DNA of 64,000 nucleotides from a candidate division WOR-3 bacterium (GCA_023131835.1 JAGLZA010000102.1:616-64615), one strand, 5' to 3'. Numbered from the stretch's first letter, positions 18,585-47,309 are shown. The notes: a model not told the origin generated them from the sequence alone. Numbers and translations: made by a program.

Positions 18585-18614
18585 AAAAGGGAGGGATGCC
18601 CCTCCCTTTTATTT
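18585..18614. terminator. Bidirectional rho-independent terminator between convergent genes
   Basis: AAAA-GGGAGGG-atgc-CCCTCCC-TTTT. Confidence 0.7.
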
Positions 18615-21062: not shown

Positions 21063-21119
21063 TCTACTATGTTAAATAATAAATAATGTTTTTTTTGAGA
21101 TTGTCAAGGGGGATAGCAA

Positions 21120-28225: not shown

Positions 28226-31200
28226 CTATTCTTGCTCTTTGAATTCTTTGAGTTTTCTGTATAGTGTAGCTCTGCCAATTCTTAATAATTTGGCTGCTTC
28301 GGGTGCATTAAAATTGCATTGTTCCAATGCCCTTAAGATATATTCGCGCTCCCTGTTTTTCATAAATTTATCTAATCTCACAATACTCTTGTTTTTAGTT
28401 AGTTTTGTCTCTCTTATTTCTTCCTTTAAATCATCAATTGTTATGCTTTCTTTCTTACTCATTGCTACTAATCTTTCTATTTCATGTTCAAGTTCGCGCA
28501 CATTCCCTTCCCATCTATAATTAATCAGTGCTTGCATTGCTTCCTCTGTAAATCCTTTCATGTTTTTGCCAAATCTCTTATTAAATTTCTCCAAAAAGTG
28601 ATTTACTGATAATGGAATATCATCTTTTCGTTCTCTTAAAGTTGGTATTTTCATCCTCATAGTGGTAATTCTATAGAACAGGTCCTTTCTAAATTCACCT
28701 CTTGCGATTAATTTTTCAATGTCTTGATTGGTTGCTGAGATTATACGAGCATCTACTTTTTTAAGTTTTGTCTCGCCTAACCTTCTGAATTTGCCATCTT
28801 GTAATACACGTAAGAGCTTCCCCTGAATTGATAAAGGAATTGAGGTTATTTCGTCGAAAAAAATCGTACCTCCATTGGCTTCTTCCAGTAATCCAAGTTT
28901 ATCATGTATCGCCCCGGTGAATGCACCCTTTTTATATCCAAAAAATTCGCCCTCAAATAGAGAATGCGGCATTCCACCACAATAGATTGGTACAAAACTT
29001 CCCTTTCTCCGGCTGTAAGAATGTATTGCACTGGCTACTAATTCCTTCCCAACTCCTGTTTCACCCTCAAGCAAAACTGTTACATCTGATTCGGCGCAGT
29101 TTTTTATGAGATTATAAATCTTCTGCATTGCTTTACTCTCACCAACGATATTACCGAAGTGCAAAATTGCCTTTTTTCCTTGCAAAGACTTTGTCGGAAA
29201 TTCTTCGCGTAATTTAATATGTTCAATCCCTATCCAAAAAATAGAGCTTAGTAGTTTTAGGAATTCTATTACTTCGGGTTCAAATTGGCTTAACTTTTTT
29301 TGCATATAAAAAGCACCCTTAATCCTACTTTCTACCTCAATGGGTATACAGAGTGTTAATCCTTTCTGTTTAAGCACTAATTCCTTCTTCTGATAGACTG
29401 ATTTACCTGTCAGGGTAATATCTCGTTGTGTTTTTTCGTCTATTTCTTCATTCGAATAAACCCTCTGTATTTCTCCATCTTCAAAAAATATTATTGCAGT
29501 CTGACCGATCTGCAGAGTACTCCTCACGAGTGTTAACGCCTCTTCTATAAACCTATCCAATGAGATCTTGCTACTAATAAGTCTCACTATTGGTAATAAT
29601 ACTCCAATCTCCAGGCTCACCTGTTTTGGTAAGACAGGTAGTAGTTCTTCAACTTCTCCAATTGATTTTTCTATCTTTTCAAGCCAGTAAGCCTCTTCTC
29701 TTTCTTGTTGAATCTCTTTTGCCTGTAGAAGCACATCAAGTGCATCCTGGTATTCATCCATTTTTAGGTATAATATACCCATTTCATAAAGGGTCTGCAC
29801 CTTTTCTGTCTCTAATAATGGGTTACCAAATGCATCTAAACTATTTTCTAAATACCTCATCGCTTCTTGCGGTGAATCCTTTTTTATAATTTTAGATCTT
29901 GTCCTGTAACTTAAACCAAGCAGTGTTGTATTCTTATTATCTCTTTCGTACTCTTCTACTTTTGACAACAAGTCTTCGGCTTCGTCAAGATTGCCTTTAT
30001 CAGCATATATGTCAGAGAGTAGGAGGCGTACCTTGCTCAATTCTGGTAAATTATTTAATTCTTTTCCTAATTCCATTGATTTTTTCAGATAAAGGATCGC
30101 TGTATCAAAATCCTCGCAGAGGAAATATATGTCCCCGGCATTTCGGTAAACATTAAAAACTATCCAGGGTTCCCTATGGCTCTCATTCTCTAATAACTCC
30201 AGGGCTTTATTACAATACTCTATTGCCAGGTCTGATTTATTAATTTGAGCGTACACTCTCCCTATATTGGAATATACCAGGGGTAAGAATACTTTATATG
30301 CTATTCGTTTTGCATACTCTAAAGATAACCTATAGTATTTCAGTGCATCATTTGATCTTCCTCTTATCTGATGGGTTGATGCAAGATTATTATATGCTAT
30401 TCCCAGACGTCTTATATTTCCGATTTTCCTACTTAATTCTATTGACTTTTGAGTATAAAAATCACTTTTTTCGATATCCTCCATTCCATGGTATACAAAC
30501 CCTAAGTTTATATATATTTTAGCCTTGGTATCTTTACGCTCGGCAAGCTCCAATGCTTCTTTCAAATGCTTAATTGCAATATTAAATTCACCCCAACGAC
30601 CATAAGTTACTCCTATTATAGTCCTTGTTTCTGCTTGAAGTTCCTTATCCTCCAATTTATCTCCTATCAATAGAGCCTTATTTAGATAATTCAATGCTTT
30701 ACTATATTCATTCTGTAAGACGAATATTTTTCCAAATATTATATACACTTCAGCTTTTGCTTTAGAGACTCCTTTACCGATTAACTTCAAAGCGTTTTCA
30801 CCAAGTTTAACTGCTTCATCATTCTCACCTTGCAACCTTTTAATCTCCATTAATTCTACCATTGCCTTTACTTTAAGCTCCCTATCTTTTTTTTGCGAAA
30901 TCACCTCATTTAAATGCTTCACGCCTTTCTCAAAATTACGGGTGATTCTATATAACCTTGCTAATCGGACCCTTATTTTTGCGTTTTTAACCCCAGTAGG
31001 TGCAAATCGAAGTGCGGTTTCATAGAGTGATATTGTGTCCAGATAAGCAAAATTCCTTTCTGCATTTACCCCTGCCGCAAGTGAATACTTATATGCTTTG
31101 TCTTTGACCCCGGCGAGTGAAAAATGATATGCAAGCATCGCTTTTTCTTCCGGGAGATGTTTCTCTAATACAAATCCAACCTTCCTATGTGATTCCTTTT

Positions 31201-32368
31201 TCTTATCTTGAGGTATCATTTGATATGCAACCTCTTTTATCATGGGATGAGCAAATTTGAATCTCTCTTTTCCTTCTATGGTTTCCTTTCTCAAGATCCA
31301 TTGGTTATTCAATACTTTAAGTTCCCTGCGAATATCTTTATCCATAATCTCATTCAAGATTACACTATCTATATATTCACCACCCATAATAGATGCATAT
31401 TGAACCACTCTCATTAACTTTTTATTATGAATCTTTTCCAACTTCTCTTGTATTATTTGTAAACATGTCCCGGTTAACTCTATTCCGGATAATTTATCTT
31501 CGTTTATTATCCAGGTATCTTCTTCTTTTGCTAAGGCTTTCTCCTCTATCAATAATTTCACAAGGTGTTCAATAAAGAGCGGAACACCCGCAGTCTTTTT
31601 AAATATTTTATCTGAGATATATTCAAGTTCATTTTCTTCTATTTCTCCTATCATAGAAGTTATAAACTTCCTTGTAGATTGAATATTCAATCTCTCAAGC
31701 AGAATCTTGATAAGATAACCTTCTATTGCCTTTTCAAATTCAATAAGGGCATCAGGTTTTTCTTCTTCTCTGTAGGTTATAATAAAAATTATATTTGATG
31801 TAATCGGCATACTGAGTGTTAAATACTTAAGAAATTCAATTGACTCCTTCCTGATGTATTGAAAATCCTCAAGGGCTATCACAATACTTTTCTCTATCGG
31901 CAGATTTATGATGAATTGCAAGAATCTTTCGAAGATGTAGTATTTCTCTATCTCTTTTAAGGGTTCAACCGTTCTCAAGTATCTTTTGTTTCTTAACCCT
32001 GGAGATAGGCTTACAAGTATATCTCCGTAACCCTTTATAAATTCCTTATAATTCTCTTCAATTAGATCAATCAATGAGTTGATTATCTTGTTAAAACAGG
32101 TATAAGGCTCCTCTTCCTCTTTCTGACATTCTGCCTTTATAAAAACTTCGTTTTTTAATATAGTTCTAACTTCTTCCAATAAGCGGGTTCTGCCAATGCC
32201 TGCTTCACCTGAAATTATTATAACTGGTTTATGTGGAAAATTCCCTAATTTATTGAGTTCTTCCTTTAGAAGGACTAATTCTTCCTCTCTCCCTACAAAC
32301 GCCTTTGGTCGAGTATATGTAAGTTTGCCAGGAGAAGTATTTATCTTAGATTTCTCTTGTTTTGCCAA
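28226..32368 (-). CDS. Giant sigma54-dependent activator with STAND-like AAA+/TPR/GAF N-terminal region (paralog 2)
   Basis: Collinear with 11820-15974 with the same domain order, but a different HTH (APEAAKLLRIGRATLYRKL). A TTG start at 32368 with a GGAGGGGG SD matches paralog 1; the ORF-track ATG at 32383 would add only 5 aa. Confidence 0.8.
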   Translation of the reverse strand: MAKQEKSKINTSPGKLTYTRPKAFVGREEELVLLKEELNKLGNFPHKPVIIISGEAGIGRTRLLEEVRTILKNEVFIKAECQKEEEEPYTCFNKIINSLIDLIEENYKEFIKGYGDILVSLSPGLRNKRYLRTVEPLKEIEKYYIFERFLQFIINLPIEKSIVIALEDFQYIRKESIEFLKYLTLSMPITSNIIFIITYREEEKPDALIEFEKAIEGYLIKILLERLNIQSTRKFITSMIGEIEENELEYISDKIFKKTAGVPLFIEHLVKLLIEEKALAKEEDTWIINEDKLSGIELTGTCLQIIQEKLEKIHNKKLMRVVQYASIMGGEYIDSVILNEIMDKDIRRELKVLNNQWILRKETIEGKERFKFAHPMIKEVAYQMIPQDKKKESHRKVGFVLEKHLPEEKAMLAYHFSLAGVKDKAYKYSLAAGVNAERNFAYLDTISLYETALRFAPTGVKNAKIRVRLARLYRITRNFEKGVKHLNEVISQKKDRELKVKAMVELMEIKRLQGENDEAVKLGENALKLIGKGVSKAKAEVYIIFGKIFVLQNEYSKALNYLNKALLIGDKLEDKELQAETRTIIGVTYGRWGEFNIAIKHLKEALELAERKDTKAKIYINLGFVYHGMEDIEKSDFYTQKSIELSRKIGNIRRLGIAYNNLASTHQIRGRSNDALKYYRLSLEYAKRIAYKVFLPLVYSNIGRVYAQINKSDLAIEYCNKALELLENESHREPWIVFNVYRNAGDIYFLCEDFDTAILYLKKSMELGKELNNLPELSKVRLLLSDIYADKGNLDEAEDLLSKVEEYERDNKNTTLLGLSYRTRSKIIKKDSPQEAMRYLENSLDAFGNPLLETEKVQTLYEMGILYLKMDEYQDALDVLLQAKEIQQEREEAYWLEKIEKSIGEVEELLPVLPKQVSLEIGVLLPIVRLISSKISLDRFIEEALTLVRSTLQIGQTAIIFFEDGEIQRVYSNEEIDEKTQRDITLTGKSVYQKKELVLKQKGLTLCIPIEVESRIKGAFYMQKKLSQFEPEVIEFLKLLSSIFWIGIEHIKLREEFPTKSLQGKKAILHFGNIVGESKAMQKIYNLIKNCAESDVTVLLEGETGVGKELVASAIHSYSRRKGSFVPIYCGGMPHSLFEGEFFGYKKGAFTGAIHDKLGLLEEANGGTIFFDEITSIPLSIQGKLLRVLQDGKFRRLGETKLKKVDARIISATNQDIEKLIARGEFRKDLFYRITTMRMKIPTLRERKDDIPLSVNHFLEKFNKRFGKNMKGFTEEAMQALINYRWEGNVRELEHEIERLVAMSKKESITIDDLKEEIRETKLTKNKSIVRLDKFMKNREREYILRALEQCNFNAPEAAKLLRIGRATLYRKLKEFKEQE

Positions 32369-32486
32369 ATATACCCCCTCCAACTGATTTTAATAATAAT
32401 ATCTGTTCTCGATAAGTTTCTTTTCCATATTGAGCTTCAAATTCTTTAGGCCTCATATATCTCAAATTACTATATATATACAATTT

Positions 32487-32599: not shown

Positions 32600-32670
32600 A
32601 AAATGTAGGGGCAAGACATGTCTTGCCATTTTTGTAGGAACGGTTTCCAAACCGCGATTTTCCGATATCC
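32600..32670. repeat. REP-like hairpins (locus D): TGTAGGGGCAAGACATGTCTTGCC and TGTAGGAACGGTTTCCAAACCG
   Basis: Same GTAGG-anchored hairpin family as the other loci; sits where the Rex coding sequence breaks off. Confidence 0.7.
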
Positions 32671-32699
32671 CCCACACCAATAAGTGCAACAGGACGCTC

Positions 32700-32944
32700 T
32701 TTTTTGTATAAACAACCTGATTTATTCTTTTGAGGACTTTTTCTATATTAAAACCTGTCCCTCTCCTTCCTAACGGTCCAATATAAGAAAGGTCCTTCCT
32801 CACTAATGTAGGCTTGAGTTTGAGTCTTTTTGCAATCTCCGAAGATGAAAATTGTTTTCTTCCTGTCTCTTGAAAAGTTACCAGACATTCTGTATAAAAG
32901 AGGAGCCTTTCAATAGTTCCTTAAGGGATACCCTCTTTATCCAT
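32700..32944 (-). pseudogene. rex: Remnant of the redox-sensing repressor Rex (N-terminal winged-helix only; frameshifted and truncated)
   Basis: AGGGAGA SD then ATG at 32944 gives MDKEGIP-stop. The +1 frame continues ...IERLLFYTECLVTFQETGRKQFSSSEIAKRLKLKPTLVRKDLSYIGPLGRRGTGFNIEKVLKRI, matching the Rex signature (QVRKDLSYFGSxGxRGVGY), then runs into repeat DNA with no Rossmann domain. Confidence 0.55.
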
Positions 32945-32956
32945 TTTATTCTCCCT

Positions 32957-34819
32957 TTATTCATTCTTTGAAATAAACCTATCGATACCTTTTGCAGTTT
33001 TATGTCCGGTATCAATTGCGGTTATAACATCGGGCCCTCCGATAAGGTCACCTCCCAGGAATAGCCATGGGAGAGAGGTCTGTCCATATTCGTTTATCTT
33101 TATTCTTCTTCCCTCATACTCAAGTTCCTCTTTTATCCCACCAAGGAGAAAAGTAAAGTCAGGTCCCTGCCCTATTGCTTCAACCACCATCGAACCTTTA
33201 AGTTCCATCTTTTCATGGGCATCGAATTCCGGATTGAAACGACCTTCCTTGTCAAAAACTCTGAGGCATTTCTTCATAACCACACCTGTTATTTTGGCAT
33301 CCTCGATTATAATTTCCTCAGGACCCCATCCGGGATAAAGGTCAATACCCTCCTCCAGAGCTTCCTCAATCTCTTCGGGAGTGGCAGGCATAATATCTCT
33401 TGTTTCCAAACAACTTACAGCAATATCAACCCTACTAAACTCCTGCATCTGTAACCGAATAAGTGTTCTTGCAATATCCATAGCAACATCTCCACCACCA
33501 ATCACCACAATCTTGTCGGTGACTTTTATCTCTTCTCCCATTGTTACCTTTCTGAGTTGTTCGATTGCCTGAAAAACATCAGGATGATCTGTTCCAGGAA
33601 CACCAGTTGTCCTTCCAACATGTAACCCTGTGGATACAAAAACAGCATCATATTTTTCTTTCAAATCCTTTAATATAATATCCTTTCCAATCGTTGTATT
33701 ACATCTTATCTCAACACCAGTTGATTTAATATAATCAATATCCTTATCCATATCCTCATAAGGAAGCCGATATTCAGGTATTCCATACCTCATCATTCCA
33801 CCGGGTTTGGGTAATTTCTCAAAAACAACGGTTTCATAACCCATCAATCTGAGATAATATGCAGTTGCCAATCCTCCGGGACCTGAACCAACAATGGCAA
33901 TTTTCTTACCTATTGATTCTATTTCTTGGGTTCCCAGCACCCTCTGATATTTTTCAAGAGGAATATTATCTACCGCATATCGCTTTAACCATCTTATAGA
34001 TACTGGGTCACCCTGGTGGCCCAAAACACAGGCGGATTCACAATTGTGAGTGCAAACTCTCCCGCAGATCCCGGGTAAAGGATTTGTTTTATAAATATCT
34101 CTAATGGCTCCTTCCAGATTATCATCCCATATATTGCGTACATAATCAACTATGTCCATTCCAGCAGGACAAACTTCTTCACATAGTTTGCACTCCAGAC
34201 ATCGTGATGCTTCCTTCTGTGCTTCCTCTTGGCTGAAACCTTTAACCTGTTCAATGAAGGATGATTTTCTCTCTCCAGGTGGAATCTGGGACATCGGTAT
34301 GCGTTCGGGGTCGAATAATGCATATATCAGATCAGGTGCAAATCCTTCATAGTCTTCCTTACGATGTGCGAGAGATGCTTTAAAAATAGAATATTTCTCA
34401 GGGGGAAGAAAATGTTCCTTATCCGTTTTCTCATCCCTTGCCAGAAGTTTGAAAGTATCCGGGTCAAAGTGTATGTGGAGGTAATCTCTGGAGAGCCTGA
34501 GAGAACCTGTAGGACAGATATCCACACATAATCCGCAAAAACAGCATCTGCCGTAATCGACCTCGGGTCTTTCGTTTTTTTCTCCTTCCTCAGGTTTAAT
34601 TTCTGGTATTTCTTTCATCTCAATCGCTACATTTGGACATATATCAGCACAATTTCCACACCCTGTGCATTTATCCCAATTATTAAGATGCAAACCTCTA
34701 TATCTTTCTGAGGGTTCCTTTAATTCAAATGGATATCTTAAAGTTTTGGGTTTTTTGAAAAGATATTTTATAGCCTTAAGAGGCCTTAAACTTTTAGGTT
34801 TTTTGTTCATCTTTTCCAC
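32957..34819 (-). CDS. Fusion of a NuoI-like 2x[4Fe-4S] ferredoxin subunit with a GltD/SudA-like NAD(P)H-dependent FAD oxidoreductase
   Basis: N-terminus TLRYPFE...CTGCGNCADICP...CCFCGLCVDICP (NuoI/MbhN-like). Then CLECKLCEEVCP, PLPGICGRVCTHNCESAC, IAIVGSGPGGLATAYYL and VVIGGGDVAMD (glutamate synthase small-subunit family). Confidence 0.7.
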   Translation of the reverse strand: MEKMNKKPKSLRPLKAIKYLFKKPKTLRYPFELKEPSERYRGLHLNNWDKCTGCGNCADICPNVAIEMKEIPEIKPEEGEKNERPEVDYGRCCFCGLCVDICPTGSLRLSRDYLHIHFDPDTFKLLARDEKTDKEHFLPPEKYSIFKASLAHRKEDYEGFAPDLIYALFDPERIPMSQIPPGERKSSFIEQVKGFSQEEAQKEASRCLECKLCEEVCPAGMDIVDYVRNIWDDNLEGAIRDIYKTNPLPGICGRVCTHNCESACVLGHQGDPVSIRWLKRYAVDNIPLEKYQRVLGTQEIESIGKKIAIVGSGPGGLATAYYLRLMGYETVVFEKLPKPGGMMRYGIPEYRLPYEDMDKDIDYIKSTGVEIRCNTTIGKDIILKDLKEKYDAVFVSTGLHVGRTTGVPGTDHPDVFQAIEQLRKVTMGEEIKVTDKIVVIGGGDVAMDIARTLIRLQMQEFSRVDIAVSCLETRDIMPATPEEIEEALEEGIDLYPGWGPEEIIIEDAKITGVVMKKCLRVFDKEGRFNPEFDAHEKMELKGSMVVEAIGQGPDFTFLLGGIKEELEYEGRRIKINEYGQTSLPWLFLGGDLIGGPDVITAIDTGHKTAKGIDRFISKNE

Positions 34820-34827
34820 TCCCCCTT

Positions 34828-35925
34828 TTATCTATCTATCTCCGGAGCAACAACATACAGGCTTATCATAGTATTGCCCACATCTGCGATATTTTCACCC
34901 ACTAACACTTTTTCTAAAATGGTCAAACCGTGAGGGTATGAAGGTGTTCTGAAGTGAACTCTATAGGGTTTATCTTTACCATTGCTGACCATGTAAAGTC
35001 CCAGTTCTCCCCGGGAAGATTCAACTCGAACATAGGCTTCTCCTTTCGGAACTTTCCATTTGAATGGATTGGGAACCTTATTGTATACTTCACCCTCAGG
35101 TAACTTGTCCAGTAACTTAAATATTAAATGAACAGATTCTATTAGTTCATCTCTTATCACCCATATCCTTGAATATGCATCACCATTTTCTCGGGTAGGG
35201 ATGTCAAAATCAACCTTATCATAAGCAGCATAAGGTTCGACTTTTCTTATATCATACGGTATCCCTGTTGCCCTTAATACCTGACCTACCGCTCCCCATT
35301 CCTTTGCTTCTTCCTGTGTTATTTTCCCTATGCCGTGGGCTCTTTCATAAAACAGTGGATTATTAAAAAACGTATCATCATAATCAGGAACACACTTCCC
35401 TATGGAATGTAATGTCTCCACTATTTTATTCGCAAAACCATCCGGAAAATCACGCCTTACCCCCCCGGGCCAGATATAAATATGATAAACTCTACCACCT
35501 GTTAATTCTTCAAAGAGGTCTAAAATGAGATCCCTGTGATACATTGCCCATTGAGCAATGGTATCAAAACCCAGCATATTGGCATAAGCCCACAAGCCAA
35601 AGAGGTGCGAACCAACTCTGGCAAGTTCAAGATATATACTTCTTATCCATTGTGCCCTCTCCGGGACTTCTATCCCGGCTAACTTCTCCACCGCCATTGC
35701 ATATACCATTTCCATATGGTCAGGCTCTATCACATTTAATCTACAGACAAGGGGGAAATTCTGTATCCAGGTTCTGTACTCCATAAGTTTCTCAAACCCG
35801 CGATGGAGGTATCCAGGATTTGCAGTTGCTTTTAAAATGCGGTCTCCTTCAACCTTCAATGTAATGCTAAAATTCCCCACCATTCCGAGATGCTGCGGTC
35901 CAAAATAAAGTTCAAGTTCTCTCAC
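34828..35925 (-). CDS. NuoD/[NiFe]-hydrogenase large-subunit homolog lacking NiFe-binding cysteines (Ehr/Mbx-type)
   Basis: 365 aa. Where hydrogenases have RxCGxCxxxH it reads LVCRLNVIEPDHM with a single Cys, and the C-terminus ...VVAPEIDR has no DPCxxC. Confidence 0.7.
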   Translation of the reverse strand: MRELELYFGPQHLGMVGNFSITLKVEGDRILKATANPGYLHRGFEKLMEYRTWIQNFPLVCRLNVIEPDHMEMVYAMAVEKLAGIEVPERAQWIRSIYLELARVGSHLFGLWAYANMLGFDTIAQWAMYHRDLILDLFEELTGGRVYHIYIWPGGVRRDFPDGFANKIVETLHSIGKCVPDYDDTFFNNPLFYERAHGIGKITQEEAKEWGAVGQVLRATGIPYDIRKVEPYAAYDKVDFDIPTRENGDAYSRIWVIRDELIESVHLIFKLLDKLPEGEVYNKVPNPFKWKVPKGEAYVRVESSRGELGLYMVSNGKDKPYRVHFRTPSYPHGLTILEKVLVGENIADVGNTMISLYVVAPEIDR

Positions 35926-36437
35926 TTTTTCTCCCCTTTAATAGGAGGAATTGAATCAAAAACATCCTTAACGTACTCCCTTGTATCAAAATCTTTCCTG
36001 AACGGAGGTATCGCATAATCTCTTTCCAGAAGTAGGTGAGTCAGTCGTGGATGGCCAGCGAATTTTATTCCGAAGAGTTCATGAATTTCCCGTTCATAAG
36101 GCTCGGCATTGGCAAAGATTGGAATTACCGTTTCAAATTCCGGATTCTCTCTGGGAATTCTCATCTTCAGATGAATATCCCCTATCTCCTTGTATGCTTC
36201 ATAATCCTGCAAATAAGGAGTAAGGATATAGACTAACTCAAATTCTGCCTTCTCGATCCAGTCCACACAGGAGATAAGGGCTAAATGGTTATATCCCTTA
36301 TCTTTAAGAAATCTCAAGATTGTTAAAACCTGCTCCTTGTGTGCAAAGATTTCTATTTTGGTATCCTCAGGTGTACTTACCTCAATATCCTTAAACGTTA
36401 ATTCTAATTCTTCCGCTAACTTTTTATTCATCTTCAT
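35922..36437 (-). CDS. NuoC (30-kDa subunit)-like
   Basis: 171 aa at the position between NuoB and NuoD homologs; sequence ...NHLALISCVDW.... Confidence 0.6.
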   Translation of the reverse strand: MKMNKKLAEELELTFKDIEVSTPEDTKIEIFAHKEQVLTILRFLKDKGYNHLALISCVDWIEKAEFELVYILTPYLQDYEAYKEIGDIHLKMRIPRENPEFETVIPIFANAEPYEREIHELFGIKFAGHPRLTHLLLERDYAIPPFRKDFDTREYVKDVFDSIPPIKGEKK

Positions 36438-36981
36438 CTATTGGATATAACGGAGGCCATTCGAGTTCACCCAGCACCATCTCCTGATTCCTCCTATAAT
36501 ATTTATATTGTTCTCTGTACTTTTTGTATGCATCTGCCATTCCCTTGTCAATCATAGTCCAAAGATGTGTGACTGCAATAAATATCGCTTCAGGCCTTGG
36601 CATACAGCCGGCAATCCAACCATCAATTGGTATATATTTATCCAGATGTTTTATTGTATTGTACGAATCCCAGTACATACCGCCGTTTATCGGGCAGGAA
36701 CCAAATCCTACTGTATATTTCGGCTCCGGCATCTGTTCATAGGTCCTGATAATAGCCCTCAATGTTTTCAGAGAAACATAACCGGTAATCAAAAAGAGAT
36801 TTGCCTGCCTTGGGGTTGCTACGGGGATAACGCCAAATCTCTCCGCATCCCAGCGAGAGGTTATTACCGGAGGGATTTCAATTATTCCACAACCGGTGCA
36901 GAAATAAACAACCCAGAAAGAATATTTATGACCCCACTTGCCTGAATCCTTTAAAGCCTTTATGACCTGTTCTCTATCCAT
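36424..36981 (-). CDS. NuoB/hydrogenase small-subunit-like, N2-type [4Fe-4S]
   Basis: FCTGCGIIE...GSCPINGG...AGCMPRP give four Cys in NuoB-like spacing. Confidence 0.7.
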   Translation of the reverse strand: MDREQVIKALKDSGKWGHKYSFWVVYFCTGCGIIEIPPVITSRWDAERFGVIPVATPRQANLFLITGYVSLKTLRAIIRTYEQMPEPKYTVGFGSCPINGGMYWDSYNTIKHLDKYIPIDGWIAGCMPRPEAIFIAVTHLWTMIDKGMADAYKKYREQYKYYRRNQEMVLGELEWPPLYPIDEDE

Positions 36982-36984
36982 TAT

Positions 36985-37872
36985 TTACCTCCAGATAACG
37001 AGTAATAATCCTAAAAATGCTATTATTGTAGGCCACTTTATACAGTAATTGAATGCCTGTTCAATTCTGAACCTTGGATACACTGTGCTTATAAGAAGAA
37101 CAATTAAGAATATCGGCAGCATTTTCATGAAGAAGGTCAAAGGTTCCGACCCTCCGCCCATAAATAGAGCGACGAATAGTGCAATATCTATAAATATCAG
37201 GTATATATGCTGAATCTTTGATAATGCGAGATAGATTCCTCCATACTCAACTTCAGGTCCGGAAGAGATCTCCTGGGGTGCACCAACTTGATCAAATGGC
37301 TTCATTCCCATCATTACAGGGAGTATGAGTAACAAGGCAATTCCTGAGAGGGGCATTGAGATTATACCCCAGTGACTTGCTCTCTGCAGTTCCACTATTT
37401 CAACAAAAGAGGTTGTTCCATAATTGGTCATAACAGAAAGAGCAACAAGAAGAAAAGGAATCTCATAACCAAGAGCAAGTATAAATTTCCGGGAGATACC
37501 GATTGAGACATTTGGGTTGGCTGCTTCAACGCTGGATAAAGCAATACCCAACGGCGCAATGAGCATTAGATATAAAACAACTAATAAACCACCTGACCCA
37601 TGCAGGGGAACAATATTTCCGATTGGTATGAAAAGTAAGGTTACTATTGCTCCTCCGAGAGAAAGAAGAATTCCAAAATCAAAGAGGAAGCCATGAGATA
37701 CGCTTTCCTGATGGAACAATTTTACTATATCTATAATGGGCTGGTATAATGGTGGGCCATATCTCCAGTGAATTCTTGCTTTGATTTTTCTTGAAAATCC
37801 CAAAAAGAGTACTCCAACCATAAAACCAATGACTATTGAACCTACTATAAGCAATATCACCATAAATTCCAC
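36985..37872 (-). CDS. NuoH/HyfC/MbhM-like membrane subunit
   Basis: 295 aa with 8 transmembrane segments; WRYGPPLYQPIIDIVKLF is a NuoH-family signature. Confidence 0.65.
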   Translation of the reverse strand: MEFMVILLIVGSIVIGFMVGVLFLGFSRKIKARIHWRYGPPLYQPIIDIVKLFHQESVSHGFLFDFGILLSLGGAIVTLLFIPIGNIVPLHGSGGLLVVLYLMLIAPLGIALSSVEAANPNVSIGISRKFILALGYEIPFLLVALSVMTNYGTTSFVEIVELQRASHWGIISMPLSGIALLLILPVMMGMKPFDQVGAPQEISSGPEVEYGGIYLALSKIQHIYLIFIDIALFVALFMGGGSEPLTFFMKMLPIFLIVLLISTVYPRFRIEQAFNYCIKWPTIIAFLGLLLVIWR

Positions 37873-39701
37873 CCCATTCTTAGAATTAAAAGGAATGCAA
37901 GGAAGAGAACTATATAAAGCACATAAGTTCCGAGATCGCCCACGTATATTTTTCTAATTGTATCGGATAAAGTCCCTCCGAATTTTACTATTTTCTCGAA
38001 GAATATTGAAACCCATTCCCTGAAAATAGGTTTCATTTCCCGGAATAAAGGAGCATAGAACTCCGACGTATATGCATATTTATCTCTTGGGGCAGGATGC
38101 CCGGCAGCATAAGTATCTTCCTGAGTAACCCTTTTTGACCTGAATCCAATTCTGTATAGGATGTAAATTCCAAAAACTACCAGTATTATTGCAAAGAAGA
38201 TGTTTACAGTATTAAGCGTTCCCATTTCAGTAACTATTCCCCAGATATTTACCTGCATTGAAGCAAAACCCATATTTTCCATCATCTTACCTATTATATT
38301 AAGAGGAATCCCAGGAAGCACTCCAAAGAGAATAATTGTAAATGAAAAAACAATAATGGGAAATTGCATTGAAAATGGTGCTCTTTTTATATTTGAATAT
38401 TTTTCAGGTAATTGCCCTAAGAACATATTATGGAGAAATTTATAAACTGAGAGGATAGTTCCCCATGTCCCAATAAGAGCTGCAAACGCTAAAAAGGGTG
38501 AATGATTTAAAATTAATGACTTGTAAAGCAACCATTTTGATACAAACCCGTTGGTCAACGGGACCCCGATAAGCCCTGAAATACCCAGGAGAGCTCCCAT
38601 GAATGCAATCGGCATTTTCTTTATTATGCCACCAAGGCTATTCAGGTCCCTCGTATGAGTTCTGTATTCAACTGCACCTACGCTAAAGTAAAGTAAAACT
38701 ATATATATAGCATGGTTCAGGGTGTGGAATATACCTCCGGCAACAGCGAGACTAGATCCATAGGCGATTCCTAAAATCATATATCCACCCTGTCCTATTC
38801 CATGCCAGGCGAGCAGTTTCTTGGCATCGTTCTGAAGTAGAGCAATGAAAGTTCCCATAATAATGGTAATGGCTCCCAGCCACGACAAAATAAAGGAATA
38901 ACCACCTGACCCCACCTCTAAATATCTCCCTAACCCTATGATTACGAACAAAATTAGAAGGAAACCGTATATCCCCATTCTTGTGAGCATACCGGAAATA
39001 ACGGCAGAAAAAGGAGATTCTGATTCTGTATAAGCATCAGGAAGCCATGTATGGAGCGGCATAAGTGCATTTTTAATACCAAAGGAAATGGAGAATAATA
39101 GTAAAGTTGAGAAAATATACCCTGGTGAAAGGGTATGCATTTGCTCCATAATAGCACTAATGTTAAAGGTCCCCAACTGTGAATAAATGACAAGCATACC
39201 AACAAGCATTGAAAATGAGCCAATAATTGATAAAATAATATACTTTAATCCCGCACTCCATCCTTCTTTTTTAAATGATATCAACAGGAAAGTTGACCAG
39301 CTCATTATCTCCCAGTAGATATAGAAAGATATAAGATCACCACTGAACACCACCCCCAACATACCTGCATTTACAAGGAGCATTAAGAGATAAAATAAAT
39401 CCACTCTCTTTTTATGGTTCATATCTGATAGAGAGAATATCATAGCAAAGAGATTTATGGATACGACAGCAATCCCGAAAAACCAGGAAATCCAATCCAT
39501 CTTTAACCTGAGAGGATAGTCAAGGAAAGAAAAGTATGTCAACTCTATTCCCGGCGTCCTGTACATTAAAGAAACAAGAACCACCAGGACAACCGATAAT
39601 AAGATAGCAAAGAAATCCCGGACTCTGGCAGAAATCTTACCGAGAAGGTAAACAAGAAATGCTCCTCCAAAGCCGATGAGTAAAGTGCATTCAAGTAGCA
39701 T
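37857..39701 (-). CDS. MrpA/NuoL/HyfB-like proton-pumping antiporter subunit
   Basis: 614 aa polytopic; Proton_antipo_M-type motifs (WLPDAY..., HAIYI...). Confidence 0.65.
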   Translation of the reverse strand: MLLECTLLIGFGGAFLVYLLGKISARVRDFFAILLSVVLVVLVSLMYRTPGIELTYFSFLDYPLRLKMDWISWFFGIAVVSINLFAMIFSLSDMNHKKRVDLFYLLMLLVNAGMLGVVFSGDLISFYIYWEIMSWSTFLLISFKKEGWSAGLKYIILSIIGSFSMLVGMLVIYSQLGTFNISAIMEQMHTLSPGYIFSTLLLFSISFGIKNALMPLHTWLPDAYTESESPFSAVISGMLTRMGIYGFLLILFVIIGLGRYLEVGSGGYSFILSWLGAITIIMGTFIALLQNDAKKLLAWHGIGQGGYMILGIAYGSSLAVAGGIFHTLNHAIYIVLLYFSVGAVEYRTHTRDLNSLGGIIKKMPIAFMGALLGISGLIGVPLTNGFVSKWLLYKSLILNHSPFLAFAALIGTWGTILSVYKFLHNMFLGQLPEKYSNIKRAPFSMQFPIIVFSFTIILFGVLPGIPLNIIGKMMENMGFASMQVNIWGIVTEMGTLNTVNIFFAIILVVFGIYILYRIGFRSKRVTQEDTYAAGHPAPRDKYAYTSEFYAPLFREMKPIFREWVSIFFEKIVKFGGTLSDTIRKIYVGDLGTYVLYIVLFLAFLLILRMGWNLW

Positions 39702-41170
39702 TATAATGCTCCAAGAACTTGTTCAATATAACCCATTTTATCAATCAGATTATGAGAAGCAAGGTGCAGAAACTGATTTATAGCCTGTGGATATACACCG
39801 ATTCCTACGATAAGAAGAGTCAGAATCACCATTGGGACCAGGGCGGTCAAAGGAGCTTCGTCTATCCCTGTCTCTTCGGTTTTCGAAAAAATTCCTTGCA
39901 GGAGTTTAAAGAAATAGGATATCTCGATTACTGTTCCCAGCAAAACGGCACCAACAAGAAAATAGAAATAAGCCTGATGGGTTAATAAAGCAGACTTTAT
40001 AATAATAAACTTACTGGGAAATCCGATAAAAGGAGGTAAGCCCACGAGAGAGAATGCACCAATCAGGAAACAAAAAGAGGTAATGGGCATTCTGACTCCA
40101 ATTCCCTTCATTTCTTCAATTTTTCTGGAACTAACCTTCCATATCATATAGCCGGCTGCAAGGAAGAGGAGTGCCTTAGAAAGAGCATGCGATAAAACCT
40201 GGAAAAGTCCTCCGGAAATACTCTCGGCAGTTCCAATAGAAATGGCAAAAAGAATGAGACCAATCTGTCCAATTGATGAATAAGCAAGAAGCCTCTTAAT
40301 ATCGTTCTGCTTAAACGCTGATAACTCTCCTATTAACAGAGTCAGTATCCCCAATCCCGCAAGGAAGTGGAGGAGATTTGATGCTCCAAACACGGTCCAG
40401 ACAAATCGCACCACTGCATAGATTCCTACTTCGATTGCAAAACCAGAAAGCACGGCGCTTATAGTCGATGGAGCCGACGAATGAGCATCAGGCAACCAGG
40501 CATTCAAAGGAAATATTGCCCCTTCAATTCCAAAACCGGTAATAAAAAGAAAAAGAGCAAGAAATAATAATGGAGAATTTACAGAATGGATTTGATTTGC
40601 GATATCTGCCATATTGAGTGAACCGCAGAGACCATAGATTAAACCAATTCCTATGAGAATAAAGGCTGAACCTACAGACCCCTGAATGAGATATTTTATC
40701 CCTGCTTCCACACCATCCTTATCTCTGTTATAGGCAACGAGCGCATAAGAAGAAATACAGAGTATCTCAAAAAAGACAAACATGTTAAATATGTCACCGG
40801 TAAGGACAACTCCTACCGAACCCGCCAGAAAGAGAAGGAAAAGTAGATGATATTTATCAATATCTCCCTTTTGGATATATTTTATTGCATAAATGGATAC
40901 GAGAAAGCCCACAAGGCTTACAATTCCTGCAAAGAAGAGGGAAAAGGGGCTTACCACAAGGTTTATTCCAAAAGGAGGTCGAAAACCTCCAATCTTCACC
41001 ACTATTGGATTTTTTGAGACAGCCGGAATCAGTACACCCACTATTATTAACATTGCCAGAGCTACAATCATGGATATGTATTTGGATAGATGTTTGGATA
41101 TAAATGCGAATAAAGGTATAGCGAATGCTCCGCCAAGGGGTATAACGATAAGTAGAACAGGGTTTACCAT
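39701..41170 (-). CDS. MrpD/NuoM/MbhH-like antiporter subunit
   Basis: 489 aa polytopic; AWLPDAHSSAPSTISA... is typical of the antiporter-like family. Confidence 0.65.
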   Translation of the reverse strand: MVNPVLLIVIPLGGAFAIPLFAFISKHLSKYISMIVALAMLIIVGVLIPAVSKNPIVVKIGGFRPPFGINLVVSPFSLFFAGIVSLVGFLVSIYAIKYIQKGDIDKYHLLFLLFLAGSVGVVLTGDIFNMFVFFEILCISSYALVAYNRDKDGVEAGIKYLIQGSVGSAFILIGIGLIYGLCGSLNMADIANQIHSVNSPLLFLALFLFITGFGIEGAIFPLNAWLPDAHSSAPSTISAVLSGFAIEVGIYAVVRFVWTVFGASNLLHFLAGLGILTLLIGELSAFKQNDIKRLLAYSSIGQIGLILFAISIGTAESISGGLFQVLSHALSKALLFLAAGYMIWKVSSRKIEEMKGIGVRMPITSFCFLIGAFSLVGLPPFIGFPSKFIIIKSALLTHQAYFYFLVGAVLLGTVIEISYFFKLLQGIFSKTEETGIDEAPLTALVPMVILTLLIVGIGVYPQAINQFLHLASHNLIDKMGYIEQVLGAL

Positions 41171-41523
41171 TTAAGATCCCTTATCTTTCTAGTGTTGAGG
41201 GTTCCATAATGCCTGTAAAGGACTATTGTCAGGGAAAGAGCAAGAGCAATGATTGCCAATCCTATTACAATAGCGGTTAACACCAGAGCCTGGGGCACGG
41301 GATCAACCATCCTGGAGGGCAAGAGATTCTCACGTGAGAAGATAGGAGCCGTCCCTCCGGATAAATATCCCATGGAAATCAATAAAATATTTACTCCCGT
41401 ATCCATAATTGAAAGACCAATAATCATCTTTATCAGGTTTTTCTTTATCAAAATTATATAAAGACCTATGAGGATTAAACCAAAAGAGGCAATATAATAG
41501 AGATAATTCTCAATAAATTCCAT
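41164..41523 (-). CDS. MrpC/NuoK-like small membrane subunit
   Basis: 119 aa with 3 transmembrane segments, positioned within the Mrp set. Confidence 0.5.
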   Translation of the reverse strand: MEFIENYLYYIASFGLILIGLYIILIKKNLIKMIIGLSIMDTGVNILLISMGYLSGGTAPIFSRENLLPSRMVDPVPQALVLTAIVIGLAIIALALSLTIVLYRHYGTLNTRKIRDLKW

Positions 41524-42239
41524 TATCCACTCCTAATCATGTCATCTATAATGCCGGTTATTTCTGAGCCCACCTTGAATCCTATTGCAATATAGATAAT
41601 AGGAATGATACCGGCACTGAAGAGTTCATTGGGAATTCCTTTTGGCAAATAATTCAAGAGAAAATGTCCACCATAAAGGAGTCCCAGTAGACCTACAACC
41701 ACAAAAATTAGTCCCGAAAGGGACTCTGTTATCTTCATTTTACTTCTATTAAAACCCCACCAACTTCGTGAACCAAGAATAACAAGGAGGAAACCGGAAG
41801 CTACTATAGCACCTCCCTGAAAACCTCCTCCAGGAGTTAAGTGTCCATGAATAAAGATATAAGCGCCGAAAAGAAGAATCAGGGGGAACAGAAATTTGCA
41901 ACCCGTATATAAAATCAAACTGCTCCTTCTCCTATTTTTTCTTTCCCCTTCTTTTTCCCTGTAAAGAATCGCAGAGAGACCAATTGCAGCAAGAAAGAGC
42001 ACTGTCACTTCCCCAAGGGTATCAAATCCACGATAATTGACCACCACTGAGGTTACTATGTTTGTTGCTCCTGTCTGTTCAATTCCTTTTTCCAGGCAGT
42101 ATTTTCTCACTTCACTTTTCGTCTTTCCAAAGGGTACCTCCTGAAGGGAGAGCCCAATCCCTATTGCTATTATGACAACAAGGATAAAACTAACTGCCTT
42201 CCTCATCTTCTTCAAACCTTTTCGTCTTCTTAATTGCAA
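41523..42239 (-). CDS. MrpB/MnhB-domain (MbhE-like) membrane subunit
   Basis: TGATNIVTSVVVNYRGFDTLGEVTVLFLA is an MnhB-domain signature. The start may be the internal Met at about 42206. Confidence 0.55.
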   Translation of the reverse strand: MQLRRRKGLKKMRKAVSFILVVIIAIGIGLSLQEVPFGKTKSEVRKYCLEKGIEQTGATNIVTSVVVNYRGFDTLGEVTVLFLAAIGLSAILYREKEGERKNRRRSSLILYTGCKFLFPLILLFGAYIFIHGHLTPGGGFQGGAIVASGFLLVILGSRSWWGFNRSKMKITESLSGLIFVVVGLLGLLYGGHFLLNYLPKGIPNELFSAGIIPIIYIAIGFKVGSEITGIIDDMIRSG

Positions 42240-42450
42240 TGATGAAAATAGCTACGGTCAGGGCTGCGCCGATGGAAGCCTCAGCCATCGCAACATCCGG
42301 AGCCTGGAGAAAATAGAACAGGATTGCAGCAATGAAACTAACAAAGCCTACGGCAATAACAGCGTTCAATAGATCTTTAAAAATTCCTGCTGCGGCTGCT
42401 GCAATCAGCATTACGAAAACAAGTATTATCTCAAGTATCATTATCTTCAT
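42190..42450 (-). CDS. MbhD/MrpB-N-like small membrane subunit
   Basis: 86 aa with 2-3 transmembrane segments, positioned between MrpG and MnhB homologs. Confidence 0.4.
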   Translation of the reverse strand: MKIMILEIILVFVMLIAAAAAGIFKDLLNAVIAVGFVSFIAAILFYFLQAPDVAMAEASIGAALTVAIFIIAIKKTKRFEEDEEGS

Positions 42451-42763
42451 CCCTGCAGAAATCTTCTGATTGATTCACTTTGGTCTTCTCACAGAACGAA
42501 ACTGAAGACATGTATGATGCCCTTCCGAATGCGTGACTTGATATTGGATTTGTCAGTAAAACAAATACAGCAATTATTAATGTAGTCCAGAACCAGGAAG
42601 GTTCTATTATCCCAACACCAAGAATAGCACAGAAGGCTCCAAGTGTTGTGCATTTTGTCCCTGCCTGAAGCCTGTTGTATACATCAGGCATCCTGTAAAT
42701 GCCAAGACTACCCAGAAATAAAAATATTACTCCAAAACCTGTGACCCACCAACCCCAGGTCAT
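42431..42763 (-). CDS. mrpG: Na+/H+ antiporter subunit G (MrpG/MnhG)-like
   Basis: GIYRMPDVYNRLQAGTKCTTLG matches the MnhG motif. Confidence 0.65.
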   Translation of the reverse strand: MTWGWWVTGFGVIFLFLGSLGIYRMPDVYNRLQAGTKCTTLGAFCAILGVGIIEPSWFWTTLIIAVFVLLTNPISSHAFGRASYMSSVSFCEKTKVNQSEDFCRDEDNDT

Positions 42764-43014
42764 TCAATCCCTCCTTCAAGATATCTTGCAATTGCGACAG
42801 AACCGATAAAGGTTAAAACAGCGTATACAAGCGAGACATCCAGATATATTTTTCTTTTCAGGATAAGACCAATCAGGACCAATAGTGCCGTGGTAACCGT
42901 TACCGATGTATCCAGAGCAACTGCGCGGTCGGGAGCAGTCGGTCCCTTCATCATCCGTAGCAAACACAATACAACTCCCAATCCAATAATTATGAGATAA
43001 ATAGTTCCAATCAT
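42760..43014 (-). CDS. mrpF: Na+/H+ antiporter subunit F (MrpF/MnhF)-like
   Basis: 84 aa; MMKGPTAPDRAVALDT matches the MnhF motif. Confidence 0.65.
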   Translation of the reverse strand: MIGTIYLIIIGLGVVLCLLRMMKGPTAPDRAVALDTSVTVTTALLVLIGLILKRKIYLDVSLVYAVLTFIGSVAIARYLEGGIE

Positions 43015-43535
43015 TGGAATATAATCCTCAGATACTTTTCAAATCTTCCACCTATTATTTCAGTGGCTTCTTCAATAGCGGTGGCTCTGACGTCAATCCA
43101 GTGAATCAGCAATCTATCCTCCTGAATATCAAGAGTAAACGTTCCCGGTGTCAGGGTTATGGAATTAGCAAGGATTATTTTTGCCAGATCTGATTTAAGC
43201 CGGGTCTTTATAATCACCACACCGGGATTTATGGGTAAAGACGGACGAATGATCCGTGAAGCAACATCCAGATTAGCCCTTATTATCTCCCAGAAGAGAA
43301 TGAATATATAAAGGATAAAAAATCCGAATCTTTTAGGTGTTACAGGGGGGAAACCGAGTCGAATATAAAATTCATGAGTGGTGATAGCGATTATAAAAGA
43401 TATAACAATTCCAACCCAGAATTCCTGGTAATAGAAGGTCGATGTAAGGAGAAGCCAGAGTATAAAAAGAGAGAAAAATAGCCACAAAAAACCTTTTATT
43501 CTATCTTTTCCAGAATAATTATTATTCTTATACAT
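43011..43535 (-). CDS. mrpE: Na+/H+ antiporter subunit E (MrpE/MnhE)-like
   Basis: 174 aa; ...ANSITLTPGTFTLDI... matches the MnhE motif. Confidence 0.6.
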   Translation of the reverse strand: MYKNNNYSGKDRIKGFLWLFFSLFILWLLLTSTFYYQEFWVGIVISFIIAITTHEFYIRLGFPPVTPKRFGFFILYIFILFWEIIRANLDVASRIIRPSLPINPGVVIIKTRLKSDLAKIILANSITLTPGTFTLDIQEDRLLIHWIDVRATAIEEATEIIGGRFEKYLRIIFQ

Positions 43536-45196: not shown

Positions 45197-45210
45197 CTTA
45201 TCCTCCTGAA

Positions 45211-46900: not shown

Positions 46901-46904
46901 TAAT

Positions 46905-47309
46905 CTATCCTGTAAATTTTCTCATACCGCTTATCAGAGCAATCTGAGGTAATCGCTTCATTTCATCCTTCGAGAGTTTCTTTACATCAATATGATCTAT
47001 AGCCTGACGGAGTTCCACCTGTCTTAGTGCCTCTGCTACCTTGGACAAATCCAATCCGCGGGGACATCTTACAGTGCAAGTAAAACAGGAGGCGCACAAC
47101 CACATGGCTTTTGACTCCATAACCTCAGATTCTCCAAGCTGTACCATTCTCATCAACTGGGAAGGTGTAATATCCATCTCGGATACCATGGGGCAACTTG
47201 CCGAACAGATTCCACATTGGTCACATCGAGTTATCACCTCACCTGATAATTCTTCAATCTTCTTCAGAAAATCCACATTTTTGTCAGATAGTTTAAGTTT
47301 CTTAATCAT
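46905..47309 (-). CDS. hdrC: Heterodisulfide reductase subunit C-like (2x[4Fe-4S])
   Basis: CDQCGICSASCP and CASCFTCTVRCP. Confidence 0.75.
   Translation of the reverse strand: MIKKLKLSDKNVDFLKKIEELSGEVITRCDQCGICSASCPMVSEMDITPSQLMRMVQLGESEVMESKAMWLCASCFTCTVRCPRGLDLSKVAEALRQVELRQAIDHIDVKKLSKDEMKRLPQIALISGMRKFTG

Follow-up and report, generated by a model that had tools for sequence, protein, structure and literature searches.

An Mrp-Mbx-type operon in a candidate division WOR-3 bacterium ends in a fused NuoI/NfnB-type subunit and is a candidate ion-pumping NADH:sulfane-sulfur oxidoreductase

We analyzed a 64,000-nt window of DNA from a candidate division WOR-3 bacterium (GCA_023131835.1 JAGLZA010000102.1:616-64615), apparently part of a metagenome-assembled genome (MAG) from a host with a GC content of ~40%. 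All positions are counted within this window. The subject is an operon for a membrane complex of the bacterial 'Mrp-Mbx' family, whose last gene joins a NuoI-like iron-sulfur domain to a flavoprotein in a single polypeptide. Genes were annotated by Pfam and NCBIfam domain searches, by comparison with the PDB, and by synteny with related loci. A preliminary description of this DNA had dealt with positions 32957-36981, which correspond to the last four genes of the operon, all of them intact open reading frames (ORFs) on the minus strand. The whole operon comprises 13 intact genes at 32957-43535 on the minus strand, in tightly packed or overlapping ORFs. Its order is MnhE, F, G, MbhD, MnhB, MnhC, two MrpD-like subunits, and then NuoH, B, C, D, and I, as in the mbx/mbs operons of Pyrococcus furiosus (compared with the mbx column in Table 4 of PMC2678158). 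The genes, the parts of the fused subunit, and the gene remnant that follows the operon are as follows.

43011-43535, minus strand: gene 1, MnhE/MbsA-like membrane subunit, 174 aa (Pfam MNHE, 1.3e-42)
42760-43014, minus strand: gene 2, MrpF/MbsB-like subunit, 84 aa (Pfam MrpF_PhaF, 1.1e-19); the ORF sits in an apparent gap
42431-42763, minus strand: gene 3, MnhG/MbsC-like subunit, 110 aa (Pfam PhaG_MnhG_YufB, 7.4e-25)
42190-42450, minus strand: gene 4, MbhD/MbsD-like subunit, 86 aa (Pfam MbhD, 1.2e-19)
41523-42239, minus strand: gene 5, MbhE+MnhB/MbsE-like subunit, 238 aa (Pfam MnhB, 4.8e-26; MbhE, 3.8e-12)
41164-41523, minus strand: gene 6, MnhC/NuoK/MbsG-like subunit, 119 aa (Pfam Oxidored_q2, 1.7e-27)
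39701-41170, minus strand: gene 7, antiporter-like pump subunit, MrpD/MbsH-like, 489 aa (Pfam Proton_antipo_M, 2.1e-67; NCBIfam PRK08377, 1.9e-138)
37857-39701, minus strand: gene 8, second antiporter-like subunit, MbsH'-like, with a C-terminal extension, 614 aa (PDB 6u8y_X)
36985-37872, minus strand: gene 9, NuoH/MbsM-like membrane anchor of the peripheral arm, 295 aa (Pfam NADHdh, 1.3e-54)
36424-36981, minus strand: gene 10, NuoB/MbsJ-like proximal [4Fe-4S] subunit, 185 aa (Pfam Oxidored_q6, 1.7e-20)
35922-36437, minus strand: gene 11, NuoC/MbsK-like subunit, 171 aa (Pfam Complex1_30kDa, 2.1e-31)
34828-35925, minus strand: gene 12, NuoD/MbsL-like large subunit, 365 aa (Pfam Complex1_49kDa, 3.7e-76)
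32957-34819, minus strand: gene 13, fused MbsN/NuoI-NfnB/GltD subunit, 620 aa (Fer4, Fer4_20, Pyr_redox_2)
34475-34819, minus strand: N-terminal MbsN/NuoI-like 2x[4Fe-4S] domain of gene 13, aa 1-115 (6u8y_N, 1.2e-33)
34313-34474, minus strand: family-specific linker of gene 13, aa 116-169 (no PDB homolog at E<=10)
32957-34312, minus strand: C-terminal NfnB/GltD-type module of gene 13, aa 170-620, with 2x[4Fe-4S], FAD, and an NAD(H) site (PDB, Foldseek)
32669-32953, minus strand: remnant of a Rex-type NADH/NAD+-sensing repressor gene, just after the operon (tblastn with the intact Rex of related locus L004)

Each of the five subunits that we compared with solved structures (the L, J, M, and H' homologs and the N domain) found its best match in the P. 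furiosus sulfane reductase MBS (6U8Y), with complex I and the membrane-bound hydrogenase MBH far lower. Assignment of the locus as a WOR-3 member of the bacterial Mrp-Mbx family, with MbsN fused to an NfnB/GltD-type iron-sulfur flavoprotein, is well supported. The locus also combines group-4-like subunits that lack NiFe ligands with Mrp subunits, as in the broad definition of energy-converting hydrogenase-related (Ehr) complexes, which lists Mbx as one type (PMC6349859). Three proposals of the preliminary description were thus borne out: a complex of Mbx/Ehr type, on which domain searches, PDB comparisons, and synteny agree; a 13-subunit Mrp-type pump, given 13 genes in mbx order by Pfam, NCBIfam, and synteny; and the fusion of a NuoI-like domain to a GltD/SudA-type flavoprotein, supported by domain search, PDB comparison, and synteny.

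The fused protein is the subunit through which electrons would enter the complex. In its 620 aa, Pfam identified two Fer4 domains (aa 47-105), a Fer4_20 domain (aa 185-285, 5e-30), and a Pyr_redox_2 domain (aa 306-599, 5.8e-27). Its start codon is most likely the ATG at 34810, which gives 617 aa, and less likely the GTG at 34819, because a GGGGGAG ribosome-binding site lies 8-9 nt upstream of that ATG and translation from it yields exactly the sequence (100% identity) of a public protein annotated as 'FAD-dependent oxidoreductase [candidate division WOR-3 bacterium].' The N-terminal domain matched MbsN best (6u8y_N, 1.2e-33, aa 2-114). The C-terminal module matched NfnABC of Thermococcus sibiricus (9n5u_A, 1.5e-75), NfnB of Thermotoga maritima (4ylf_B, 1.6e-74), NfnI of P. 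furiosus (5jca_L, 2.9e-71), StnC (8oh5_C), and GltD (6s6s_G, 6.4e-52); at the sequence level, it is closer to NfnB-type proteins than to GltD. When an AlphaFold2 (AF2) model of the fused subunit (pLDDT 82.4, pTM 0.72) was used as a Foldseek query, only NfnB, GltD, and DPD were recovered, with a TM score of 0.87 to NfnI 5jca_L. The PDB comparison found the two halves never combined in one solved chain. A query spanning the linker (aa 105-200) returned no PDB match at E<=10, so this segment is not detectably the C-terminal extension of MbsN; in the AF2 model it is partly ordered, with pLDDT values of ~80-85 at aa 121-140 and below 50 at aa 160-169. The 16 Cys residues for four [4Fe-4S] clusters, including residues 51, 54, 57, 61, 92, 95, 98, and 102 of the N-terminal domain, are invariant or nearly so in 121 fused homologs (C95 is kept in 120/121 and is Phe in one). 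The predicted ligand pattern is that of a continuous wire from the FAD to the NuoB cluster.

Such a fusion could in principle be an artefact, either of two genes merged by a frameshift or assembly error or, for the large subunit discussed below, of NiFe-ligand cysteines lost through sequencing error. We found no positive support for this, although the adjacent Rex gene carries an in-frame stop and a truncation, and local errors or decay are therefore possible. A scan of species-representative genomes identified 17 related loci, and in 17/17 the NuoI-like and GltD-like parts lie in one frame directly after the NuoD gene, as they do in two further loci, L019 and L020. The related loci that carry a taxon name come from WOR-3/Stahlbacteria, Aerophobetes, Pirellulales, Actinomycetota, Spirochaetia, and Thermotogae MAGs. 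Searches with the window protein returned >120 full-length clusters at 54-88% identity. With a Thermotogae MAG protein as the query, 1,289 clusters were found at E<=1e-150, and the full-length architecture was present in >1,000 clusters at 90% identity. A query limited to the junction (aa 100-215) gave 35 matches among 1.84 billion representatives, ~12 of which are full-length fused representatives at 50% identity whose junction is equally placed, a number that serves only as a minimum. NCBIfam model NF010590 (PRK13984, 'putative oxidoreductase') was matched at positions 10-609 of 611 (E 1.6e-252); the score of the window protein, 839 bits, is below the equivalog cutoff of 946, which points to the same architecture in a divergent lineage. 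In yet another lineage, the same 13-gene operon is closed by a triple fusion (P0099, 753 aa) of NuoI domain, NfnB/GltD module, and rubrerythrin, at 10001-12262 in L019 and 5038-7299 in L020.

The 17 independent loci, the >1,000 clusters, and the span of the NF010590 match refute a merger of separate nuoI-like and gltD-like genes. Together with the large-subunit orthologs described next, they leave an artefact of either kind with a negligible probability. The survey of related genomes proposed in the preliminary description thus found the fusion at all 17 loci and not a frameshift-merged pair. By the same evidence, the subunit is not the unusual one that it had seemed, since the family to which it belongs is large, conserved, and represented by a dedicated NCBIfam model, and a gltD-type subunit is already in the literature (PMC4758237).

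The NuoD homolog, which corresponds to the catalytic subunit of [NiFe] hydrogenases, has only two cysteines, C61 and C178. It carries LVCRLNV at aa 59-65 and ends in ...YVVAPEIDR in place of DPCxxC. In a HMMER alignment to MbsL, C61 falls on the first Cys of what was the RxCGxC motif, and the other three ligand positions are N64 (the second motif position), V, and E. Because 1/4 of the NiFe ligands remain, a NiFe site is excluded on sequence grounds. At the former NiFe positions, the same residues recur in 13 NuoD orthologs from other, independent assemblies, which rules out sequencing error as the cause of the loss. The claim that this subunit cannot bind NiFe therefore stands, in that there is no complete site and 13 orthologs agree, but the ligand count is one of four and not zero. 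C61 is invariant in 14/14 bacterial NuoD sequences, whereas archaeal MbsL keeps two different vestigial Cys. The positions of the quinone head-group ligands of Nqo4, H38 and Y87, are occupied by V16 and V65; these ligands are likewise missing in MBS (PMC7684303). The closest PDB relative of the NuoD homolog is MbsL (6u8y_L, 6.3e-108, 48% identity), followed by Nqo4 of Thermus thermophilus (8e-74) and the MBH large subunit MbhL (5.4e-44), and its identity across the related loci is 68-93%.

The subunits that surround the NuoD homolog point to the same relative. The NuoB homolog aligns without gaps to MbsJ (6u8y_J, 1.9e-68, 60% identity), so that its four cysteines, C28/31/96/126, correspond to C25/28/93/123 of MbsJ. 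In MBS, the proximal cluster is ligated by MbsJ C28, C93, and C123 only, C25 being too distant, and the free iron of this cluster is the proposed catalyst of polysulfide reduction (PMC7684303). An ortholog of the NuoB homolog in a Thermotogae MAG has Ala at the first Cys (position 28). The window protein carries the motif FCTGC, that is, the CxxC of hydrogenases and MbsJ and not the tandem CC that holds cluster N2 in complex I. We conclude that the proximal cluster is probably a three-Cys, MBS-type cluster of which the first Cys is not a ligand. Of the N2-like cluster initially assigned to this subunit, the four Cys are present, but the arrangement is the MbsJ-type CxxC, with the first Cys probably a nonligand. 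The NuoH homolog is closest to MbsM (6u8y_M, 3.2e-58, versus 2.1e-16 for MBH 6cfw_M and 4e-11 for complex I). The 614-aa antiporter-like subunit is closest to MbsH' (6u8y_X, 618 aa, 2.8e-73); the alignment runs over its whole length (aa 16-606 versus 17-615) and covers the C-terminal lateral helix and the extension formed by transmembrane helices (TMH) 15 and 16.

These comparisons bear on whether the complex is an alternative complex I, i.e., an NADH:menaquinone oxidoreductase in which an NfnB-like module replaces NuoEFG. The NuoD homolog scores 433 bits against NCBIfam PRK06075 ('NADH-quinone oxidoreductase subunit D'), above the cutoff of 360, and surveys of WOR-3 genomes label these genes nuo/complex I (PMC12542636). 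MBS and complex I have equally wide substrate chambers (PMC7684303), and electron transfer from NADH to menaquinone would offer ample energy for two pumps. However, both quinone ligands are Val, NuoB has CxxC and not the tandem CC of N2, and Mrp-type subunits stand where NuoA and NuoJ homologs would be expected, neither of which is present. The subunits tested are also far nearer to MBS (L, 1e-108 versus 1e-74; M, 3e-58 versus 4e-11). We consider a menaquinone reductase quite unlikely. The preliminary description had left the acceptor as quinone or polysulfide; the loss of the quinone ligands and the MBS affinity of every tested subunit favor sulfane sulfur and speak against quinone.

The nucleotide can be narrowed as well. 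In T. maritima NfnB, Y310-R311-R312 hold the phosphate of NADPH, and among DsrL proteins, homologs with YRR use NADP(H) while those without it (DsrL-1) are NAD(H)-specific by kinetics (PMC7596348). At the YRR position, the fused subunit has C470-L471-E472; (C/S)-L-E is invariant across the family, as is L-E. On account of this replacement, we predict that the subunit uses NADH rather than NADPH, so that of the NAD(P)H donor originally proposed the nicotinamide-nucleotide site is kept and NADPH is dropped.

The flavoprotein half is nearer to bifurcating NfnB types (4ylf_B, 5jca_L, 9n5u_A, 8oh5_C) than to GltD, which raises the possibility of flavin-based bifurcation or confurcation, with the NfnB-like FAD splitting or merging electrons among NADH, ferredoxin, and a membrane-arm acceptor. 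Against this, neither the operon nor the window holds an NfnA/SudB-like partner or a second electron path, and Glu117, a ligand of the NfnB proximal cluster, is a conserved Lys in the fused family (numbering from PMC7596348). The related GltD and DsrL modules, moreover, are simple entry or exit ports for NAD(P)H (PMC7596348). Bifurcation at this flavin thus appears very unlikely.

At the loci named for other groups, identity is 78-87% for NuoD, 82-87% for NuoB, and 71-83% for the NuoI domain, compared with 52-67% for the membrane subunits and 45-50% for the flavoprotein half. The pocket subunits are thus the most conserved part, which argues that the chemistry would occur at the pocket; this pattern is expected if the NuoB/NuoD pocket chemistry is the selected function, and horizontal transfer of the core may also contribute. 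The pattern is relevant to another possible activity, that of an Rnf-like, ion-translocating ferredoxin:NAD+ oxidoreductase or its reverse, in which ferredoxin docks on the NuoI domain and the flavoprotein reduces NAD+. This was the original proposal for MBX and has been stated for Thermotoga and proteobacteria (PMC4758237) and for Mesotoga Mbx (bioRxiv 322537). It is thermodynamically comfortable (~100-180 mV) and fits a predicted site for NAD(H) rather than NADP(H), and the Hdr/MvhD/TfrA-like sets and Mvh-type hydrogenase encoded upstream (see below) could supply reduced ferredoxin. Yet this route would bypass the NuoB/NuoD/NuoH pocket, which is the coupling site in all characterized relatives and the most conserved part here. 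In addition, the activity of P. furiosus MBX proved to be that of a sulfane reductase rather than of a ferredoxin:NADP+ oxidoreductase (PMC7684303, PMC8165549), Rnf itself has already been reported from WOR-3 genomes (PMC12542636), and the Hdr/Tfr neighborhood is absent from related loci that reach upstream. We regard a ferredoxin:NAD+ oxidoreductase as unlikely.

We favor the reading that the complex is an ion-pumping NADH:sulfane-sulfur oxidoreductase, to which we assign a probability of roughly 50%. It is built on gene content, homology, cluster ligands, and the loss of NiFe, quinone, and NADPH motifs; the donor, acceptor, direction, and ion coupling are its predicted parts. NADH would give a hydride to the FAD of the C-terminal module, from which electrons would pass singly through the two [4Fe-4S] clusters of that module, then the two clusters of the NuoI/MbsN domain, and then the proximal cluster of the NuoB/MbsJ homolog, which, as in MBS, would probably have three Cys ligands and a free iron. 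This iron would reduce polysulfide or other sulfane sulfur in a hydrophobic pocket formed by the NuoD, NuoB, and NuoH homologs, and the sulfur chemistry would power the export of H+ or Na+ by the Mrp module and both antiporter-like subunits. The net result would be a complex-I-like enzyme with a nonhomologous NADH-input module and with sulfur instead of quinone.

Several reports are consistent with a role in sulfur metabolism. In T. maritima, mbxA is upregulated 4.4-fold with elemental sulfur (S0) (PMC9431562), and optimal growth of a thermophile that carries a 13-gene MBS cluster depends on S0 (PMC10356935). Strain sy37, the first WOR-3 isolate, respires S0 without psr and dsr and has a 750-aa 'SudA-like' protein (PMC12285271), which may be the fused subunit in its rubrerythrin form (P0099 has 753 aa). 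More tentatively, and with slightly less than even odds, a 'sulfur complex I' of this kind might be the sulfur-respiration enzyme of sy37 and operate also in Thermotogae and the other carriers sampled, its NADH module having been recruited independently of NuoEFG and Cys61 representing a bacterial adaptation of the pocket.

A number of observations weigh against NADH-driven sulfur reduction, the chief weakness being energetic. Standard potentials are approximately -320 mV for NADH and -260 to -270 mV for polysulfide or S0 to sulfide. At these textbook potentials, transfer from NADH to polysulfide yields only ~10 kJ per 2 e-, compared with the 42 kJ of ferredoxin-driven MBS (PMC8165549), and low sulfide or an acceptor of more positive potential would be required for pumping. 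C85 and C385 of MbsL have no counterpart in the window NuoD homolog, so that the pocket is not identical to that of MBS, an objection softened by the fact that both are dispensable for MBS catalysis. For bacterial Mbx members, the literature mostly assumes a ferredoxin:NAD(P)+ activity (PMC4758237, bioRxiv 322537) or else ferredoxin-driven sulfur reduction (PMC9431562).

A neighboring regulator that senses NADH/NAD+ speaks for the NADH-driven reading. Immediately after the fused gene, three WOR-3 relatives and two Aerophobetes loci carry an intact gene for Rex (PF06971 + PF02629):

L004, 3665-4318: intact Rex gene
L001, 3420-4052: intact Rex gene
L002, 3650-4273: intact Rex gene
L006, 10913-11500: intact Rex gene
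L015, 8544-9161: intact Rex gene

In the window, however, Rex is present only as a remnant, with 75% identity over aa 2-96 to the intact L004 protein (tblastn); it has a TAA at codon 8 and a frameshift and has lost the C-terminal (Rossmann) half. The Rex operator TTGTGAAN6TTCACAA had four matches with three mismatches in the window versus 5.6 expected, and no site with <=2 mismatches was found in any locus, so that the regulatory evidence is limited to synteny.

The region directly upstream of the operon, at 43538-59321 on the minus strand, encodes an Mvh/Vhu-type group 3c [NiFe] hydrogenase (MvhG, MvhA) and two paralogous sets of Hdr-related genes. The first set consists of HdrC-HdrB-HdrA-MvhD, a 2Fe-2S/4Fe-4S protein, and a TfrA-like, fumarate-reductase-type flavoprotein; the second, 46-61% identical to the first, consists of an 805-aa HdrA2-MvhD fusion, HdrC, HdrB, an iron-sulfur protein, and a TfrA-like protein. 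The last upstream gene, which is TfrA-like, ends 2 nt before mnhE, the first gene of the Mrp module. Possibly, this cluster encodes a bifurcating system driven by H2, its acceptor being of the fumarate or thiol type. We considered it as a part of the system under study, but it was not found in related loci extending upstream and is treated here as neighborhood. Scans for tRNA genes and Rfam families gave no match in or beside the operon, and promoter and terminator scans returned fewer sites than shuffled controls.

Elsewhere in the window, two paralogous giant regulators of ~1385 aa, with an AAA_16 NTPase, a long tetratricopeptide repeat (TPR) array, a sigma-54 AAA+ activator domain, and HTH_8, are encoded at 11820-15974 (plus strand) and 28226-32383 (minus strand), both in low-GC stretches (0.33-0.35 versus ~0.40 elsewhere). 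A cobalamin riboswitch (Rfam RF00174, 103.8 bits) at 20915-21079 on the minus strand lies upstream of genes for the S component of an energy-coupling factor (ECF) transporter (20353-20859) and a TonB-dependent receptor (18609-20351). Genes at 16305-18566 (plus strand), 21483-24728 (minus strand), and 25086-27941 (minus strand) encode large secreted proteins, all three with C-terminal sorting domains for type IX secretion (Por_Secre_tail) and one also with PKD and Reg_prop repeats, and two adjoining tRNA-Ser genes with anticodons GCT and TGA lie at 1157-1333 (minus strand). Outside the window, related locus L007 has a second, much more divergent NuoH/NuoB/NuoD/MrpD cluster at 9881-17144, ~3 kb downstream of its Mbx-like operon and with 33-41% identity to the window proteins; it could encode either a genuine group 4 hydrogenase or a further complex of the Ehr type.

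If NADH:sulfane-sulfur oxidoreductase activity were confirmed, many anaerobic bacteria could gain ion-motive force from NADH and S0 or polysulfide without quinones, molybdopterin enzymes, or ferredoxin, and NADH-input modules would have been recruited into complex-I-type machines on at least two occasions, from unrelated flavoproteins. The carriers sampled, as named, are WOR-3, Aerophobetes, Thermotogae, Pirellulales, Spirochaetia, Actinomycetota, and Bipolaricaulota. The complex is a candidate for the sulfur-reduction mechanism left open in the description of the first WOR-3 isolate (PMC12285271), and the 'nuo/complex I' calls in WOR-3 surveys may include an Mrp-Mbx complex (PMC12542636). The most immediate use of these results is in annotation, where neither 'FAD-dependent oxidoreductase' nor 'glutamate synthase small chain' conveys what the fused subunit is.

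Compared with known systems, the complex differs from the group 4 [NiFe] hydrogenases (MBH, Ech, Hyc) in its large subunit, which has only the first Cys of their RxCGxCxxxH + DPCxxCxxR four-Cys set. Its flavoprotein half resembles NfnB, GltD, and DsrL in having Fer4_20 and Pyr_redox_2 domains, all eight cluster Cys, and the NfnB fold, and YRR is absent as in DsrL-1; it differs in being fused to a NuoI/MbsN domain within a membrane complex, in having no NfnA/SudB or GltB partner, and in the Lys at the position of Glu117. With complex I, it shares homologs of NuoB, C, D, H, I, K, and L/M/N, NADH as the predicted donor, a [4Fe-4S] chain to a pocket at the membrane interface, and the lateral-helix subunit. 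In contrast to complex I, its NADH module is of the NfnB/GltD type (FAD) and not NuoEFG (FMN), and no NuoE, F, or G homolog was found in the operon or the scanned window ORFs; Mrp subunits take the place of NuoA and NuoJ, CxxC that of CC, and H38/Y87 are gone.

The likeness to MBS of P. furiosus is closer: 13 genes in the same order, two antiporter-like subunits plus an Mrp module, no complete NiFe site, no quinone ligands, and identical spacing of the MbsJ Cys. In MBS, which comes from an archaeal hyperthermophile and not a bacterium, MbsN is a stand-alone, ferredoxin-accepting protein of 208 aa, whereas the N subunit of the window is fused to an FAD/NAD(H) module of ~450 aa; MbsL keeps the second and third NiFe Cys (C85, C385), whereas the window protein keeps only the first. 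Because of the fused N subunit, we file the complex as a bacterial fused variant and not as MBS sensu stricto. The same association of flavoprotein and complex occurs in Staphylothermus marinus, where the SudA-like Smar_1055 lies adjacent to the mbh/mbx-related cluster Smar_1057-1071, although the S. marinus flavoprotein is encoded by a shorter gene of its own; involvement in sulfur respiration was suggested for this pair in 2009 (PMC2678158).

The closest counterparts are bacterial Mrp-Mbx operons, which are known from Thermotoga, Mesotoga, and Endoriftia, among others (PMC9431562, bioRxiv 322537, PMC11636981). The 13-subunit MBX of T. maritima, Theba_1796-1808 of Mesotoga, and the Endoriftia operon are of the same type; the fused subunit aligns end to end with the NF010590 family, and some of these operons end in rubrerythrin (P0099). 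Subunits of the gltD type in mbx-like operons of Thermotoga and proteobacteria were described by Degli Esposti in 2015 (PMC4758237). The architecture is therefore already described and not new, and it is real and conserved. In the WOR-3 literature, the labels 'complex I' and 'SudA-like' protein have apparently been applied to the parts of this complex (PMC12542636, PMC12285271). What we add to these known systems is the prediction of NADH as the donor and a possible link to WOR-3 sulfur respiration, a link that neither of those two papers draws.

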